DNA of 58,373 bases. It comes from Promethearchaeota archaeon. GTDB taxonomy: Archaea > Asgardarchaeota > Lokiarchaeia > Sigyniarchaeales > SOKP01. The stretch covers positions 1-58,373 of the forward strand of contig JBHLNL010000006.1 of NCBI GenBank assembly GCA_048941605.1. Reading direction: 5' to 3'. Each line of letters begins with the position of its first letter. Position 1 is the stretch's first letter. Positions 39,397 through 58,159 of this stretch are shown one piece after another. The notes below the pieces were generated by a model that made no database searches, was not told where the DNA came from, and saw only the letters and a program-made list of their open reading frames with translations. Made by a program: the position numbers and the translations under genes.

Positions 39397-40755
39397 TTAA
39401 GGTTTTCCGGGACCTTCTCCTACTTTTCGATAAATAAATCCTTTTCCTTCTATTAATTTTTTGTTAAAAATATTTCTACCGTCAATAATAATTGGTGTTC
39501 TTACTTTCTTTTTTAATTCGTCAAGATCAATATTATAATATTCTTTATGATTTGTAGTAAACATAAGAACATCAGCTCCAGACACAGCTTTATTGAAATC
39601 ATCGGTTAATTCCGTTTTATGATAATCTCTCTCTTTAACGTAAGGATCATGTGCTAGAAAAGATATATTATGAGAGTGATATCTACTTTTTAATATATTA
39701 ACAATATTTTCAGTTGGCGTGTTCCTTGTATCATCTGTATTCGCTTTATATGAAACGCCTAAGAGAACAATCTTCACATTATCAACTAATTTACGAGATT
39801 CTCTGAATACATCTTCCATTAGTTCAACCATATGTCCTGGCATAGAATCATTTAATTCTCTTGCTTTTAATAATATGTCTGAATTAAATTTATGGTTTGT
39901 ATATGTACGATGCCCATAGACAAGCAGGTGGGGATCTTTTGTTAGACAATGACCACCAACTCCAGATCCCGGATAATGCATCATTCTATCATGTCTATGA
40001 TTGATCAATTCGATGATCTCAAATATATTTCTATCGAAATCCTCACATAACAGAGCCATTTCATTAGCAAAAGCGATATTTACATCTCTATATGTATTTT
40101 CTATACATTTTGTTAATTCCGCTGTAAGTGTATCTGTTATGTGTAAATCTTTTTTTACTACTTTCTCATACAGAAACCTAGCTCTATTGTTAGCTTCATC
40201 ACATCCTCCCCCAATCACTCTTTCCATATCGGTTATATACTCTAGCATTTTACCAGGCATAACACGTTCAAACGAAAATACCAGATAAAAATCTTCTCCC
40301 CTCTTTAAACCGCTTCCTTCTTCTAATTCCCTTTTAACAATATTATTTGTTGTTCCTGGGGCTACAGTAGATTCAATTATTACAGTTACCCCTTTCTTCA
40401 TATGTCTTGAAACTTTTCGAGAGACTTCAATTAAAGATTCATATCTAGGAATTTTAGAATCTAAATCAACTGGAGTTTGAACATCAATAAGAATAAAATC
40501 TGCTTTATTAACATCATCATATTTGTCTGTGACTTTAAACTTTCCATTCTTTACTACTCTCGCTATTAGCTCATCTAAACCAGGTTCTTCTCCCTCAAAT
40601 GGACTTTTTCCCTGATTTAACCAGTCAATCTTCCAACCAGATCTTTTGGACCTACGCTGAATCCCCGTAACATAAAAATCATCAACATCTGCAAGTAGCG
40701 CTGCCATAGGGATACCTACATAACCCATTCCAATAACAATAATATTAGTAGACAT
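39397..40755 (-). CDS. Nucleotide-sugar 6-dehydrogenase (UDP-N-acetyl-D-mannosamine / UDP-glucose dehydrogenase family)
   Basis: 452 aa. The N-terminal Rossmann motif is IIVIGMGYVGIPMAA. The catalytic region is GSGVGGHCLTKDP. A C-terminal UDP-binding domain is present. Confidence 0.85.
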   Translation of the reverse strand: MSTNIIVIGMGYVGIPMAALLADVDDFYVTGIQRRSKRSGWKIDWLNQGKSPFEGEEPGLDELIARVVKNGKFKVTDKYDDVNKADFILIDVQTPVDLDSKIPRYESLIEVSRKVSRHMKKGVTVIIESTVAPGTTNNIVKRELEEGSGLKRGEDFYLVFSFERVMPGKMLEYITDMERVIGGGCDEANNRARFLYEKVVKKDLHITDTLTAELTKCIENTYRDVNIAFANEMALLCEDFDRNIFEIIELINHRHDRMMHYPGSGVGGHCLTKDPHLLVYGHRTYTNHKFNSDILLKARELNDSMPGHMVELMEDVFRESRKLVDNVKIVLLGVSYKANTDDTRNTPTENIVNILKSRYHSHNISFLAHDPYVKERDYHKTELTDDFNKAVSGADVLMFTTNHKEYYNIDLDELKKKVRTPIIIDGRNIFNKKLIEGKGFIYRKVGEGPGKP

Positions 40756-52932: not shown

Positions 52933-54087
52933 TTATATACGTTTCTGGAGTACAATGTGCTTTCTTATTGGTTCACAATGAGGAAATATAGTATCAATGG
53001 CACGTGAATTATTTGACCAAATACCTGTTCCTTCAAAATAATTTACACCAAATAAATTGCAGGTAAGTTGTCCAATATTATTAAGAGCTGAGAAAATACC
53101 TTTGCCAAAATATCCTTTTTTTACCATTGCGGTATCCACATTACACCGTGTTATCGGATTTCCAACCCATGCTTCAAATAAGTCGGGAAGCCCTAATAAT
53201 ATACCCACTAGCTCACCAGAAATTCTATCAAAAGCCATTGGAGCAAATGGCTCTATCTTTTCAAGGTTATGAGTTTCCCAAGTATCTCTAAATTGTTTTA
53301 TGTTCGAATGATTCTTAAAATTAATGTGATTGTTTATCTTATAGAAAGACTTTGGAATCTTCTGAAAAGCCTCAAAAAACTCGTAGATCCGGTTTCTTCC
53401 TGATGCATCAGGTAAAATTTCATGAAATGAATTACTCGCTAAATTACGGATTTCATCAACATAATCATATAACTTCTTTATTGCCATATATCTAAACTCA
53501 ATATTTTTATCTATTTTCTTACCTTTATCCCACATTTTTTGAGCAACATACATACATGAATATTCGGATTCTTTTTGATATGCAAGAGAATTTAAATACT
53601 CGATGATTTTGGAATTTGGATCTGAGAAAGCCACACCATATAACATTGGTTCATTAAATCCCACGAATTGAAATCCAATCCCTCCTAAATTTTTTGGAAA
53701 ATTGATATTTCCCCGAATTTTACGTACATTACATTTTTTAATAAACTTTTCACACCGCTTAATCAATTCTTTGCAAATTTCTAAACTATCAGCATGAAGC
53801 CAACCGAATGTACCGCATTTACGACTATAGCTAGTATAATAAGGATCAATTTGACAGATAACAAATCCCTCTATTTTTTCTGCTCTATAGGCAATGAACA
53901 CACATATTTTAAACTCTGGATTTGACAATTTTTTTTCCAGATAAGATAGAAGTTCAGCAATTACATAGGGTTTGACAATTTCATTTGGTACATATAAAAT
54001 AGCTTCTAAAGCTTCTCTAATCTCTGCAAGATCTATTGATTCTACGATCCTGCTTCTAACATCTAATTTCCCTAATGCTTGTACCAT
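52933..54087 (-). CDS. Hypothetical protein, possibly a tandem GNAT-like acyltransferase fold
   Basis: 384 aa in two halves, each ending in a GNAT-like beta-alpha segment (IRGNINFPKNLGGIGFQFVGF; KKGYFGKGIFSALNNIGQLTCNLFGVNYFEGTGI). Support is weak. Confidence 0.4.
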   Translation of the reverse strand: MVQALGKLDVRSRIVESIDLAEIREALEAILYVPNEIVKPYVIAELLSYLEKKLSNPEFKICVFIAYRAEKIEGFVICQIDPYYTSYSRKCGTFGWLHADSLEICKELIKRCEKFIKKCNVRKIRGNINFPKNLGGIGFQFVGFNEPMLYGVAFSDPNSKIIEYLNSLAYQKESEYSCMYVAQKMWDKGKKIDKNIEFRYMAIKKLYDYVDEIRNLASNSFHEILPDASGRNRIYEFFEAFQKIPKSFYKINNHINFKNHSNIKQFRDTWETHNLEKIEPFAPMAFDRISGELVGILLGLPDLFEAWVGNPITRCNVDTAMVKKGYFGKGIFSALNNIGQLTCNLFGVNYFEGTGIWSNNSRAIDTIFPHCEPIRKHIVLQKRI

Positions 54088-54177
54088 TTTTATCTCAACT
54101 AATTTTGAATTATTGAGATAGTATTGAATTATTTCTTTTTAAAAAAAAAATAAAAAATAGAGATTAAAAAATAGAAT

Positions 54178-55260
54178 TTATATCTTAATAGGTAATTGAG
54201 TGTTAATCGAAATATTTTCTATATGGTCTTTTCGAAAGCTAGTATCTGCCATAGCACATGAAGAACATTTACACATTTTCTCATAAAGGGGATGATTCCA
54301 CATATAATCAAATATTTCTTTCAATGGTCTTTCTCTGATATTCCCAAATGAATAGGGGATAGTAATGCATGGCTGTACCTCCCCATAAGGTGACACATAG
54401 TAATAGATCTTAGTTTTTAAGGCAACACATGAGGGATTGTCTTGATATTGGGTATGCCATTCTCTAAAGACATAAGGAAAATGCTTATTGGCTAAATCCC
54501 ACAATTTTTTTCTTGCTGATGCTGTTAATATTACTTCTGAATGATGGAGCCACCTTCCAGTAGGGTAAGGAGGCAAGTATCTTACACCATGAGCTCCAGC
54601 TGATTTTGCTACTTCAATTAATCTTTCAAAATCTCCATTTTCCAGCCCTTCATTCGTCATTGTATAAGAAAAATAACACCGTTTTATTCCCGCTCCCACT
54701 GCATTCTTCATTGCTCTCATAGATATGTCAAAGCATCCTTTTAAATTACGATTCGCATCATGAATTTCAGGAGTAGCGCTGTCAAGGCTAATAAAAACAA
54801 TATCAATTCCTGCTTCTTTTAATTGTTGAACATAATCTTCTGTCATTGAAATACCGTTTGAATCAATACTTATTAACATTGCTTTGTTTGAGGCATATTC
54901 AATAATTTCCATAAGGTCCTTGCGTAATGTAGGTTCACCACCAATAAGATTTAGAGCAAATAAATTCGCAGATTGGTCGATTAAATCTTTTATTTCTTCA
55001 GTAGTTAAGTCCTTCTGATCTTTCTTAATATATGAATTTACGGCACAGTGATTACAGAGAAGTTGACATCGATAGGTAACTCCTAGCATTAAATATAAAA
55101 TCGGCTTTGACCGATCTTGCAGCCATTGAAATAATGACTTCACCTTACGAGGTTCAATAGGGAAATGCCCTTTACGAATAGCAATCTTAAACCTCTCAGT
55201 AAATTTTGGATTTTTAAATTTTAAATTCTCCAATAATGAATTAGATTTCATTGGTATCAT
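54178..55260 (-). CDS. Radical SAM enzyme with C-terminal SPASM/twitch-type auxiliary cluster domain
   Basis: The CxxxCxxC motif reads YRCQLLCNHCAV, and GGEPTL is present. The C-terminal Cys set is PSCVA..VSPYGEVQPC...CKCSSC. Confidence 0.85.
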   Translation of the reverse strand: MIPMKSNSLLENLKFKNPKFTERFKIAIRKGHFPIEPRKVKSLFQWLQDRSKPILYLMLGVTYRCQLLCNHCAVNSYIKKDQKDLTTEEIKDLIDQSANLFALNLIGGEPTLRKDLMEIIEYASNKAMLISIDSNGISMTEDYVQQLKEAGIDIVFISLDSATPEIHDANRNLKGCFDISMRAMKNAVGAGIKRCYFSYTMTNEGLENGDFERLIEVAKSAGAHGVRYLPPYPTGRWLHHSEVILTASARKKLWDLANKHFPYVFREWHTQYQDNPSCVALKTKIYYYVSPYGEVQPCITIPYSFGNIRERPLKEIFDYMWNHPLYEKMCKCSSCAMADTSFRKDHIENISINTQLPIKI

Positions 55261-55320
55261 CTATTTTGAAGTTTTGTAACTTATTTTCATATTGTTTTTA
55301 TATAAAGGAAAAAAGGAGGA

Positions 55321-55416
55321 ATGGTGATTTTTCCTTTAAATATCTTTGATATCAATACTCTCAAAGATTTTTTTAAGATTTTTTTAAGAAAAAAATTTCA
55401 AAGTGAAAAAAAATGA
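55321..55416 (+). CDS. Possible 31-codon leader/micro-ORF translationally coupled to the first PP-loop gene
   Basis: AGGAGG lies directly upstream of ATG-GTG. The reading is MVIFPLNIFDINTLKDFFKIFLRKKFQSEKK. Its TGA overlaps ATG 55413 (ATGA). Confidence 0.25.
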   Translation: MVIFPLNIFDINTLKDFFKIFLRKKFQSEKK

Positions 55417-56528
55417 TAGAACAACAAATAAAACTTGTAAGAACAAGAAATACTTGCAGCAAATGTGTAAATGATATTTCTGTTTCTGGAATCTCATTTA
55501 ATGGAAATAATACATGCAATTACTGTGAGGCATATGAAAGAAAGCAAGTAAAACTAACTGATTATGATGCCTTAATGAAATTATGGCTTGGAAGATTGAA
55601 AAGATACAAGGGACAAGGAGATTATGATGCTTTAGTTGGGCTCTCAGGAGGGAAGGATAGTACCTATGTATTGCACCAATTAAAAAATACCTACGGATTA
55701 AAAGTAAAAGCTTGGACATTAGATCAAGGATTCCTAACCAAATGGTCTAAAGAAAGAATAGAAAGTATTGTATCAGAATTAGGAGTAGATCATGAATATA
55801 GTGTTGTAGATCGAGAAAAAATCGCCCCTCTCTATATTCTATCGATAATGGCAACGGGAGGTCCTTGCTACACCTGTAGTTATGTAATGTACGGGTTATT
55901 CATAAAGACTGCTTCTGAGCAAAATATTCCGATGGCCATTCATGGACGTTCCAGACCTCAGATGTTAAAGATCTATTCTCCACATAATGAACTTGATCCT
56001 TACAAACCATTTCTAGAAATGTCGTTAAAACCGATTGAAGACGTTAACCTCACAAAGACCTATGAGGATATATTGTCAGTATTACATAAAATTTTACCTG
56101 CTAACGAAGTGGAGAAATTCAGTGAATTCTTCCCCAATCTTGATACAGGATATATCGCAGAATTTATTCCTTACTTTCTCTACCATCCTTATGATGAAAC
56201 GAAACTAGTGGAATTTCTTGAAGCCAATATGAATTGGAAACGCCACCAAAACTATGATGTCTTTACACATTTTGACTGTGCTGCTCATGATGCGTCTGGT
56301 TATTTATATGAAATAGCTGATGGGAGACCATTTATTATGCCAGAATTAAGTGTGTCCATACGAGAAGGAGTTATCTCTCGAGAAGAAGCAGTAAAAAGAT
56401 TAGAAAGAGAAACTTTTCTGAGATTTCCTACCCAATCTATGGAGACTTTAGCTAGTTATGTAAAAAAAAGTCAAAGATCCCTAATTTCTAATGCGAGACG
56501 CATAGCTAAGAGAAGGGGGTATATTTAA
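55413..56528 (+). CDS. Zinc-ribbon PP-loop ATP-pyrophosphatase, N-acetyl-sugar amidotransferase-like (PseA/WbpG family), paralog 1
   Basis: The N-terminal CSKCV...ISFNGNNTCNYC is followed by YDALVGLSGGKDSTYV (the SGGxDS PP-loop) and an internal CYTC. At 371 aa it matches this family's size. Confidence 0.7.
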   Translation: MIEQQIKLVRTRNTCSKCVNDISVSGISFNGNNTCNYCEAYERKQVKLTDYDALMKLWLGRLKRYKGQGDYDALVGLSGGKDSTYVLHQLKNTYGLKVKAWTLDQGFLTKWSKERIESIVSELGVDHEYSVVDREKIAPLYILSIMATGGPCYTCSYVMYGLFIKTASEQNIPMAIHGRSRPQMLKIYSPHNELDPYKPFLEMSLKPIEDVNLTKTYEDILSVLHKILPANEVEKFSEFFPNLDTGYIAEFIPYFLYHPYDETKLVEFLEANMNWKRHQNYDVFTHFDCAAHDASGYLYEIADGRPFIMPELSVSIREGVISREEAVKRLERETFLRFPTQSMETLASYVKKSQRSLISNARRIAKRRGYI

Positions 56529-56561
56529 CTTCTTAATAACAGATAATAGAAACGTGATTAT

Positions 56562-57734
56562 ATGATCGAAAGACAACATATATGTAATAAATGCATTTTA
56601 CCAGATGGCTTTTTAGGCATCAATTTAGATTCTAAAGGAGAATGCAATTTTTGTCGTGATCCAAAACATGAAAATGTTAACTGGACTCGAACTGTAATTG
56701 ATCAAAAAAGAAGGGATAATGCTCTAAAAGATTGGAATTCAATAGTAAAGGATATGCAAAAAAACCATGGAAAAGCCCAATATGATTGCATTTTAGGATA
56801 TTCTGGGGGTAAAGATTCTACTGCTCTCCTAGATTATTTGGTGAATAAATTGAAATTAGACCCTTTATGTGTTACTTCAGATACAGGGTTTATGACAAGC
56901 ATTGCAAAAGACAATATGAGAGATACTTTAGCTCAAATTAATGTTGACCATGTATTAATTGAAGAATGTATCCCAACTTTTACTAAACTCTACAAATGGC
57001 ATTTTTTTAACCATAGTTCGAATGAAAAGTTCCTTGCTCGATTTATCTGTGATTATTGCTCTGATCTAATTCATAGCATCGTCGTAAAACAAGCCATCAA
57101 ACGTGAAATTCCATATGTCTTTTTTGGATATTCACCAGATCAAATTGCACGCTATTTTTTTGAAATGTCAAGAGAACAAATTATTGAAGAATGGATGCCA
57201 GATTTAGTTTTCAACGATCCCGTCTTTGATGGTTCTGATAAACAATGGTATTTAGCATATGAAGAAATTAATAGTGGAAAACTCCCTAGAGTGCTTTTAC
57301 CATATCATGTGATACCATATCATGAACGAGATATCATCAAGCTTGTAGAATCTAAAAAATATATTAAGAAAGGACATGCTGACCCTCTTTTAACTAATTG
57401 TAATGTAGTTCACGCAGCAACTTTTTATGATTTTAATCGATATGGTGGGATTCTATATGCCTATCAATATGCTGAATTAGTAAGACAAAATCCAGAATCA
57501 CGTAAAAAATGGCTTAGAACATTAAAAATATCTGCTCCGCTTATTCTCGAAAATAATTTTAAGCGAAAGGAAGTAAATGCATTTTTAAATAAGATTGGTG
57601 TTTCTCAGGATGAATTGCTAGAACATGTCAAACTACAATTAGAACAAGATCCAAATAAAGAAAAAATACAGACTAATATAAATCTCTTCAGGAAAAAGCG
57701 AACAAATAGAATTTCTGTACCAAACTCAAATTAA
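56562..57734 (+). CDS. Zinc-ribbon PP-loop ATP-pyrophosphatase, N-acetyl-sugar amidotransferase-like, paralog 2
   Basis: CNKCILPDGFLGINLDSKGECNFC...NW......YDCILGYSGGKDSTAL closely follows the PseA-type N-terminus (C.KCV.P.T.P...FDE.G.C..C ... YDC...SGGKDS). Confidence 0.7.
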   Translation: MIERQHICNKCILPDGFLGINLDSKGECNFCRDPKHENVNWTRTVIDQKRRDNALKDWNSIVKDMQKNHGKAQYDCILGYSGGKDSTALLDYLVNKLKLDPLCVTSDTGFMTSIAKDNMRDTLAQINVDHVLIEECIPTFTKLYKWHFFNHSSNEKFLARFICDYCSDLIHSIVVKQAIKREIPYVFFGYSPDQIARYFFEMSREQIIEEWMPDLVFNDPVFDGSDKQWYLAYEEINSGKLPRVLLPYHVIPYHERDIIKLVESKKYIKKGHADPLLTNCNVVHAATFYDFNRYGGILYAYQYAELVRQNPESRKKWLRTLKISAPLILENNFKRKEVNAFLNKIGVSQDELLEHVKLQLEQDPNKEKIQTNINLFRKKRTNRISVPNSN

Positions 57735-57790: not shown

Positions 57791-58159
57791 TTAATATTTA
57801 GATTTTCTAATATACCCTATAAAGATAATTATACTAATTATAATGTCTACAATTTCTGTAATTACAACGAACAATGCGTTTTCTCCAATAATAAATTGTA
57901 TTAAAGGGCGAATTATCTGAGAAATCAAATATGCTCCAAATCCTATAGTTAACAGTAAAGTATTAACCTGGGATAGTCTTTTATTACGGTGTGAGAAATA
58001 AAACATCCATGTAATTACTAAGAATGAGCAAACAATAAAGATCGCGATATTTATACCCGCAAAAGTTGTGTTCGGAGTTATAATTATCAATGTTGCTTCT
58101 ATTGCAGCTATAATTCCTAATATTATTAATGAAACTCTATTTATCTTCTTGGAATCCAT
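57791..58159 (-). CDS. Small integral membrane protein, hypothetical
   Basis: 122 aa with 3-4 hydrophobic helices. Confidence 0.55.
   Translation of the reverse strand: MDSKKINRVSLIILGIIAAIEATLIIITPNTTFAGINIAIFIVCSFLVITWMFYFSHRNKRLSQVNTLLLTIGFGAYLISQIIRPLIQFIIGENALFVVITEIVDIIISIIIFIGYIRKSKY

Follow-up and report, generated by a model that had tools for sequence, protein, structure and literature searches.

The 58,373-nucleotide stretch of DNA analysed here (positions 1 to 58,373 of contig JBHLNL010000006.1, assembly GCA_048941605.1; hereafter the window) comes from a Promethearchaeota archaeon and is one complete contig of a 95%-complete, 3.5-Mb metagenome-assembled genome (G000). Towards its right-hand end lies a divergent four-gene locus whose conserved unit is a pair of genes: X384, encoding a tandem GNAT-fold acyltransferase-like protein, and PPb, encoding a PP-loop ATP pyrophosphatase with the fold of N-acetyl-sugar amidotransferases (NASATs). 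The remaining two genes, for a second PP-loop protein (PPa) and a radical SAM enzyme, are recent additions. We tentatively favour a function in which the pair carries out acyl transfer and then an ATP-dependent exchange of the amide oxygen for nitrogen or sulfur on the head group of a membrane lipid or glycolipid.

Conservation of the X384-PPb pair

Gene neighbourhoods were compared over 20-kb stretches from 20 related genomes and over 49 loci of a species-level genome collection, and 301 genomes of the phylum were surveyed. X384 is present in 41 of these 301, all belonging to one GTDB family of Promethearchaeota (Asgard archaea of the Lokiarchaeia type) and spread over seven genera. Within this family 31 genomes carry PPb, which gave a single weak match elsewhere. 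Both genes occur together in 27 genomes, on the same contig in 22 of them and separated by 300 bp or less in 15; PPb stands without X384 in four genomes of the family. Their co-occurrence within the family gives a Fisher p of 2.4e-4, with a double-negative count that is a lower bound and a significance inflated by kinship. Roughly 29 of the 49 loci have the two genes at most a few kb apart, mostly divergent and sometimes convergent or in tandem, and the pair shows high sequence conservation (60-80%).

The other two members of the locus are distributed differently. Only three of the sequences have PPa between X384 and PPb: the window, the closest genome (CP070831, here G006; 84% identical) and one metagenome contig. 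The radical SAM gene occupies this position in the window alone and is absent from all other loci compared; in the closest genome and in the metagenome contig, X384 directly adjoins PPa. PPa, a protein of bacterial type, was inserted between the pair in the lineage of this genome. An earlier sequence-only reading had treated the four genes as one unit and named neighbourhood analysis as its check, and on that check the unit came apart for the radical SAM gene and for PPa. Its description of the four open reading frames (ORFs) was confirmed as to coordinates, strands, domains and motifs, and the divergent promoter region it put at about 150 bp measures 152 bp (Table 1).

Among the related loci, five (L065:1350-3044, L073, L088, L090 and L095) carry directly after X384 a 564-aa gene for a B12-binding radical SAM protein, which looks like an alternative partner.

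Table 1. Coordinates of the features discussed, numbered from the first letter of the window
Feature	Position	Strand	Length	Remark
X384, tandem (double) GNAT-fold acyltransferase-like protein	52933-54087	-	384 aa	conserved core gene
Apparent single-gene insertion with the radical SAM gene	~54116-55281 (edges approximate)	-	~1.2 kb	homology break against G006
Radical SAM enzyme, partial SPASM/twitch-like C-terminal domain	54178-55260	-	360 aa	lineage-specific passenger
Divergent spacer, radical SAM gene/PPa	55261-55412	strandless	152 bp	
PPa, NASAT-fold PP-loop ATP pyrophosphatase	55413-56528	+	371 aa	mainly bacterial subfamily
PPb, NASAT-fold PP-loop ATP pyrophosphatase	56562-57734	+	390 aa	Asgard-specific; conserved partner of X384
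Remnant of a 276-aa membrane protein	57791-58159	-	residues 153-276	tblastn with the G006 orthologue
UDP-glucose/GDP-mannose dehydrogenase gene	39397-40755			~12 kb from the cluster

The divergent spacer contains a TATA-like element, TTTATATAAA, at ~55297-55306, which is common to the window and G006 and, judged by the archaeal TATA consensus, probably acts as a promoter. It now faces both the radical SAM gene and PPa. A 31-codon ORF (55321-55416) overlaps the start of PPa; no ATG-initiated counterpart exists in the homologous spacer of G006, so a conserved peptide gene is unlikely here.

Two PP-loop proteins with an additional cysteine triad

NASATs are defined by an SGGxDS PP-loop together with a zinc ribbon of the form CxxC-Xn-[GN]xCxxC (PMC10607449). 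Both PP-loop proteins of the window carry the two motifs: PPa has the ribbon C15/C18...N-T-C35-x2-C38 and SGGKDS at residues 78-83, and PPb has C8/C11...G-E-C28-x2-C31 and SGGKDS at residues 81-86, along with an invariant C76. The ribbon cysteines are invariant in the orthologues of either protein. Both also align with the TIGR03573/WbuX model over its full length. The scores of PPa (145.9 bits) and PPb (123.9 bits) stay below the cut-off of that model (203.2 bits), and the two proteins belong to different subfamilies.

PPa and PPb share 25% identity, confined to the N-terminal ~200 residues, and fall into different clades of the tree. PPb forms an Asgard clade of its own with 100% support. 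The PPa of the window falls in a clade of 11 archaeal/metagenome sequences that is nested within bacterial ones, and its bacterial homologues, from Clostridia, Oscillospiraceae, Treponema and Verrucomicrobiota, are 35-51% identical to it. Canonical NASATs make up a third clade, apart from both. The root of this tree is unreliable because the branch of the NcsA outgroup is very long. Given the partial, low identity and the separate clades, PPa and PPb are no recent duplicate pair.

The AlphaFold (AF2) model of PPb (pLDDT 87) was compared with known structures using Foldseek. The top match is a Legionella NASAT (8wex; E 1.5e-10, TM-score 0.54-0.55), followed, at E about 1e-6, by TtuA with its Fe-S cluster, [4Fe-4S]-LarE and YcfA.

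Beyond the NASAT motifs, both proteins possess a further CxxC that is invariant (C163/C166 in PPb, C152/C155 in PPa) and a later invariant cysteine (C280 in PPb, C289 in PPa). This CxxC...C triad is missing from four canonical NASATs taken from loci with hisH and AglZ/HisF2 or with nonulosonate genes. In alignment, its CxxC coincides exactly with the one that binds the cluster in the NcsA/TtuA homologue encoded in the same genome. In TtuA, three cysteines hold a [4Fe-4S] cluster and oxygen is replaced by sulfur through an adenylate (PMC6225789); CtaC, an Fe-S enzyme of the same superfamily, turns amide bonds into thioamides (PMC6772006). PPa and PPb resemble TtuA/TtcA/Ncs6, CtaC and [4Fe-4S]-LarE in the PP-loop, the N-terminal zinc finger and the placement of a CxxC where the helix following strand three begins, and such proteins supply the second-tier Foldseek matches of PPb. 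They differ from them in the location of the third cysteine, in a C-terminal half that is NASAT-like and in having no gene for a TtuB-like sulfur carrier nearby. The suggestion, made from sequence, of amidine- or thioamide-forming chemistry is compatible with the triad.

NASAT-like PP-loop domains with comparable cysteines also occur in two plasmid-encoded proteins. In Roseovarius (L121:2941-4140) such a domain, with the same zinc ribbon and a CxxC...(S/T)NC arrangement, sits inside a non-ribosomal peptide synthetase (NRPS); in Streptomyces (L122:2932-4101) one with the same cysteine pattern is fused to a condensation domain. Both are candidate in-line amide-modifying domains.

The genomic surroundings also set the pair apart from canonical NASATs. 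The canonical loci that we retrieved have hisH and AglZ/HisF2, or nonulosonate or O-antigen genes, alongside. Beside the X384-PPb pair there are no HisH/HisF2 or nucleotide-sugar genes in any of more than 40 related loci. A search of the window's genome with TIGR03572 (WbuZ/HisF-like) returned no match at E<=1e-5, with a signal in all 14 control genomes; since this genome is 95% complete, HisF, and hence histidine biosynthesis, may be missing from it. The context is therefore as atypical for a NASAT-type enzyme as had been supposed, and the nucleotide-sugar dehydrogenase that had been placed about 12 kb away is indeed there. In sum, PPa and PPb are like NASATs (TIGR03573: WbuX, WbpG, PseA, AglX; structure 8WEX) in the zinc ribbon, in SGGKDS and in alignment with the whole model, and PPb also in its overall fold (TM 0.54 against 8wex). 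They are unlike them in their scores, their clades, their extra cysteines, their tandem GNAT partner and the lack of HisH/HisF2 or sugar genes nearby.

The tandem GNAT protein, its bacterial counterparts and a possible function

Profile scans with the X384 protein of the window gave no Pfam or NCBIfam match, and a profile search of PDB sequences yielded nothing useful. Its AF2 model (pLDDT 78.8, pTM 0.76) was more informative. The solved structures ranking first in Foldseek are all tandem GNATs (5kf1, E 7.5e-13; 2wpw; 7q3a; MshD; Eis), as are at least the 30 top matches, placing two GNAT folds in a single chain as had been predicted. Four of 35 X384 orthologues reach the Pfam family Acetyltransf_1, weakly (best E 7e-5). 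The region corresponding to the coenzyme A (CoA) loop reads F-G-K-G-I-F (G328-K-G330): its glycine pair is invariant, and its first and last positions are non-canonical with respect to Q/R-x-x-G-x-G/A.

X384 thus shares with characterised tandem GNAT acyltransferases (the C. acetobutylicum glucosamine N-acetyltransferase 5KF1, the clavulanate-pathway protein 2WPW, MshD, MAB_4324 and Eis) the two fused folds, at Foldseek E-values of 1e-13 to 1e-7, and a GxG motif resembling the CoA loop in the C-terminal domain. It departs from them in sequence (~10-13% identity), in ~60-80 additional residues and in the want of a Pfam match for the window protein. The family is tiny, with 151 matches in 1.84 billion representative proteins and about nine full-length clusters.

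A comparable pairing exists in bacteria. In four of six bacterial contexts, the PPa homologue directly follows a gene for a GNAT-like protein or for a HAD/GNAT-like fusion; a fifth has GNAT and AMP-binding genes nearby, and the sixth has genes for a CDP-alcohol phosphatidyltransferase and an MMPL protein. The gene order in the four is GNAT-like protein, PP-loop protein, small membrane protein with an Asp-rich motif, PPDK_N/PEP-utilizers protein, DUF3419 (BtaA-like) protein and AMP-binding ligase. This six-gene operon, apparently uncharacterised so far, was seen in Clostridia, Treponema and gut metagenomes (L109, L110-L112, L125, L127), the motif of the membrane protein being DDxxDxxxD-like.

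Remote matches of X384 are homologous, by BLAST, to the GNAT-like protein or HAD/GNAT-like fusion encoded ahead of the bacterial PPa homologues. Aligning the X384 profile with that of the bacterial GNAT-like family in hhalign gave a probability of 99.9% (E 1.9e-32, 333 columns); against single bacterial neighbour sequences, the result was insignificant (3-4%). Because the bacterial profile was built partly from matches to the X384 profile, it is the BLAST link that supports the relationship independently. Within the bacterial family, 11 of 16 members match the Pfam GNAT domain Acetyltransf_1.

Membrane proteins recur around the archaeal pair. One neighbour, found in 33 loci including distant ones, is a protein of 641 aa whose C-terminal part is a DUF998 membrane domain and whose N-terminal part is weakly, and only tentatively, GNAT-like; between it and X384 homology is undetectable. 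In the genome studied here its gene runs off the end of another contig. A 276-aa membrane protein is a recurrent neighbour in 28 related loci. In the window only its C-terminal 122 aa (~45%) are left before the contig ends, and the last ~200 bp of the contig (up to 58373) are unrelated to its gene, so that either a true truncation or rearrangement or else an assembly break must have occurred.

DUF998 has been tied to levels of the lysyl-glycolipid made by MprF (PMC13370385). MprF combines a membrane domain with a tandem-GNAT-like synthase, and the X384 model gives a weak Foldseek match to its C-terminal domain (5vrv). The system formed by MprF and the DUF998 protein DrmA, which serves lysyl-lipid homeostasis, likewise ties a GNAT-fold transferase to a DUF998 membrane domain. 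It differs in that the DUF998 gene here lies outside the window and the use of aminoacyl-tRNA is without support; the link is one of analogy.

Two further observations concern the surroundings of these genes. A protein of 744 aa, weakly similar to HerA/DUF87, is encoded upstream of the GNAT-like/DUF998 gene at L056:18-2620 and in 19 other loci; in 18-20 loci it is conserved immediately ahead of that gene together with a partner of 123 aa. The G014 bin, from a related genome, contains a block with Ldh_2 twice, once with PPa (L045, on C15) and once with X384 (L025, on C34); its estimated contamination is 8%, and it may combine two strains.

We now outline how the pair might work. X384 would move an acyl group, probably acetyl, from acyl-CoA onto an amine of the substrate, forming an amide. 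PPb, and probably PPa where present, would then use ATP to adenylate the amide carbonyl. In the manner of NASATs, nitrogen could take the place of the oxygen, giving an amidine; alternatively, the triad could hold a [4Fe-4S] cluster of the kind known from TtuA and CtaC, in which case sulfur would take that place and give a thioamide. Head groups of membrane lipids or glycolipids are the most likely class of substrate, because of the membrane-protein neighbours, the DUF998 domain and the lipid-type genes of the bacterial operons.

A bolder version of this proposal makes PPa and PPb a new [4Fe-4S] NASAT-fold clade that, with a tandem GNAT, converts an N-acyl lipid or glycolipid head group to a thioamide, or to an amidine by a new route. 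We regard it as speculative and unlikely. If true, it would reveal a new class of modified lipid common to one Lokiarchaeial family and to the gut and anaerobic bacteria that have the six-gene operon.

Several findings weigh against the favoured explanation. As to the acyltransferase, X384 of the window lacks a Pfam GNAT match, its CoA-loop motif is canonical only in part and the structure it matches best, that of a sugar N-acetyltransferase, speaks for a glycan as substrate; the lipid assignment itself is drawn from neighbouring genes only. As to the pairing, PPb is missing from 14 of the 41 genomes with X384, and in five related loci its place is taken by the B12-binding radical SAM gene, so X384 is not strictly dependent on PPb; moreover, the archaeal synteny comes largely from rather close relatives. 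As to the triad, its third cysteine (C280 in PPb, C289 in PPa) is out of line with the third ligand of NcsA/TtuA, and the TM-scores between PPb and TtuA are low (0.3-0.45). The triad could therefore be a structural zinc site, and cluster binding is put forward here as a hypothesis.

The apparent radical SAM insertion and rival explanations

The radical SAM protein matches PF04055 (93.3 bits) and, above the cut-off of 21.5 bits, the SPASM family PF13186 (29.7 bits). Its core motif is C65-x3-C69-x2-C72. The C-terminal part holds five cysteines only, in the arrangement Cx15Gx4C ... CxCxxC; as a full SPASM motif has seven, the domain may be twitch-like. No NCBIfam cut-off is exceeded, the best score being that for AhbD (126 bits against a 500-bit cut-off). 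With known SPASM/twitch enzymes (AhbD/NirJ, MftC, PqqE, BlsE, Tes, SkfB), it has in common the CxxxCxxC core, the Cx15Gx4C start of the auxiliary domain and both Pfam matches over their cut-offs. It differs from them in belonging to no named family, in the count of C-terminal cysteines and in having its nearest homologues, 45-48% identical, in another context.

Those homologues, in related genomes, adjoin genes for 2-hydroxyacyl-CoA dehydratase and its activator; the best found in a collection of 5.8 billion proteins are 46% identical. In related Asgard genomes (L046-L052), radical SAM relatives stand repeatedly beside two HGD-D dehydratase subunits and a BcrAD/BadFG activator ATPase. A partial relative, P0128, is 62% identical and has an unrelated gene context.

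Homology to the X384-PPa spacer of G006 ends at ~54116 and restarts at ~55281. Between these points lie 1.2 kb that contain the radical SAM gene with a short leader and, past its stop codon on the minus strand, runs of T6, T6 and T10. From this alignment, the gene looks like a single-gene insertion into the divergent promoter. A mobile-element signature was considered and rejected: no target-site, terminal or flanking repeats were found at the cassette, where only A/T-rich low-complexity sequences matched, and, at a GC of 0.34 (window, 0.31), its base composition looks native. At most, the enzyme would provide an optional tailoring step.

A glycan substrate is a serious rival to a lipid one, although we judge the corresponding scheme unlikely overall. 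In it, X384 would N-acetylate an amino sugar of an N-glycan or S-layer glycan, and PPb or PPa would convert the acetamido to an acetamidino group like PseA, WbpG, WbuX and AglX, with free ammonia as the nitrogen source. The full-length TIGR03573 alignments with two NASAT motifs each, the Legionella NASAT as best structural match of PPb, the glucosamine N-acetyltransferase as that of X384 and the UDP-sugar dehydrogenase 12 kb off all fit this scheme. It is harder to reconcile with TIGR03573 scores well under the curated cut-off, with a genome that lacks a WbuZ/HisF2-like gene, and with the fact that canonical NASATs lack the triad and form a separate clade. Nor does a sugar-nucleotide enzyme, glycosyltransferase or flippase stand beside the pair in any of the more than 40 loci.

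Peptide maturation, a nucleic-acid target and defence are less likely still. A thioamide- or amidine-forming PP-loop enzyme acting with an acyltransferase, and here with the radical SAM/SPASM enzyme, on a peptide or a carrier-bound metabolite from non-ribosomal synthesis has precedents: SPASM radical SAM enzymes frequently act on peptides, as NCBIfam matches illustrate, CtaC performs Fe-S thioamidation within the same superfamily, and PP-loop domains with the same cysteine pattern occur in an NRPS of Roseovarius and on a condensation domain in Streptomyces. The radical SAM gene is, however, peculiar to this genome and has no relation to the core, so this explanation loses its chief support. 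Relatives of that gene accompany dehydratase genes, the 31-codon ORF 5' of PPa is not kept in G006, and the conserved neighbour families include no carrier protein, NRPS, RiPP recognition element (RRE) or conserved precursor ORF; we therefore think it improbable. That all four genes nevertheless serve one pathway, newly assembled in this lineage, seems to us quite improbable too. The genes are closely packed round a single spacer, with the radical SAM gene behind the shared TATA-like element, and the B12-binding radical SAM class after X384 in five other genomes means that radical tailoring of the X384 product may recur; yet the combination is known from a single genome, the oligo-T runs that follow the stop codon of the radical SAM gene suggest that it is transcribed separately, and the insertion could be neutral. 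We give least credence to modification of tRNA, rRNA or a protein by a TtuA-like thiolase or amidase with a GNAT. The layout of zinc ribbon, PP-loop and CxxC is indeed TtuA/NcsA-like and the pair is conserved at the 60-80% sequence level, but it occurs in a single family, roughly one-third of whose genomes lack it, its neighbours are membrane proteins, its bacterial relatives lie in lipid- or metabolite-type operons, and the genome has a separate NcsA homologue of its own. Anti-phage defence, screened with PADLOC, was rejected: the similarities were generic, to radical SAM (pVip) and PP-loop (DndC, E ~1e-4) proteins.

The sequence-only reading could assign the locus to no described pathway, and we have found none that fits it. 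For annotation, the X384-PPb gene pair is the conserved unit, and the radical SAM gene ought not to guide the prediction of function. The pair marks a NASAT-fold group with the cysteine signature of Fe-S sulfur insertases, represented in Asgard archaea, in a bacterial operon and in some NRPS proteins. If thioamides or amidines are made, the known chemistry of PP-loop enzymes would be widened. The bacterial homologues offer an experimental route that does not depend on Asgard culture. The pair may also indicate an unrecognised modification of lipids or of the envelope in Asgard archaea, whose membranes are relevant to models of the origin of eukaryotes.

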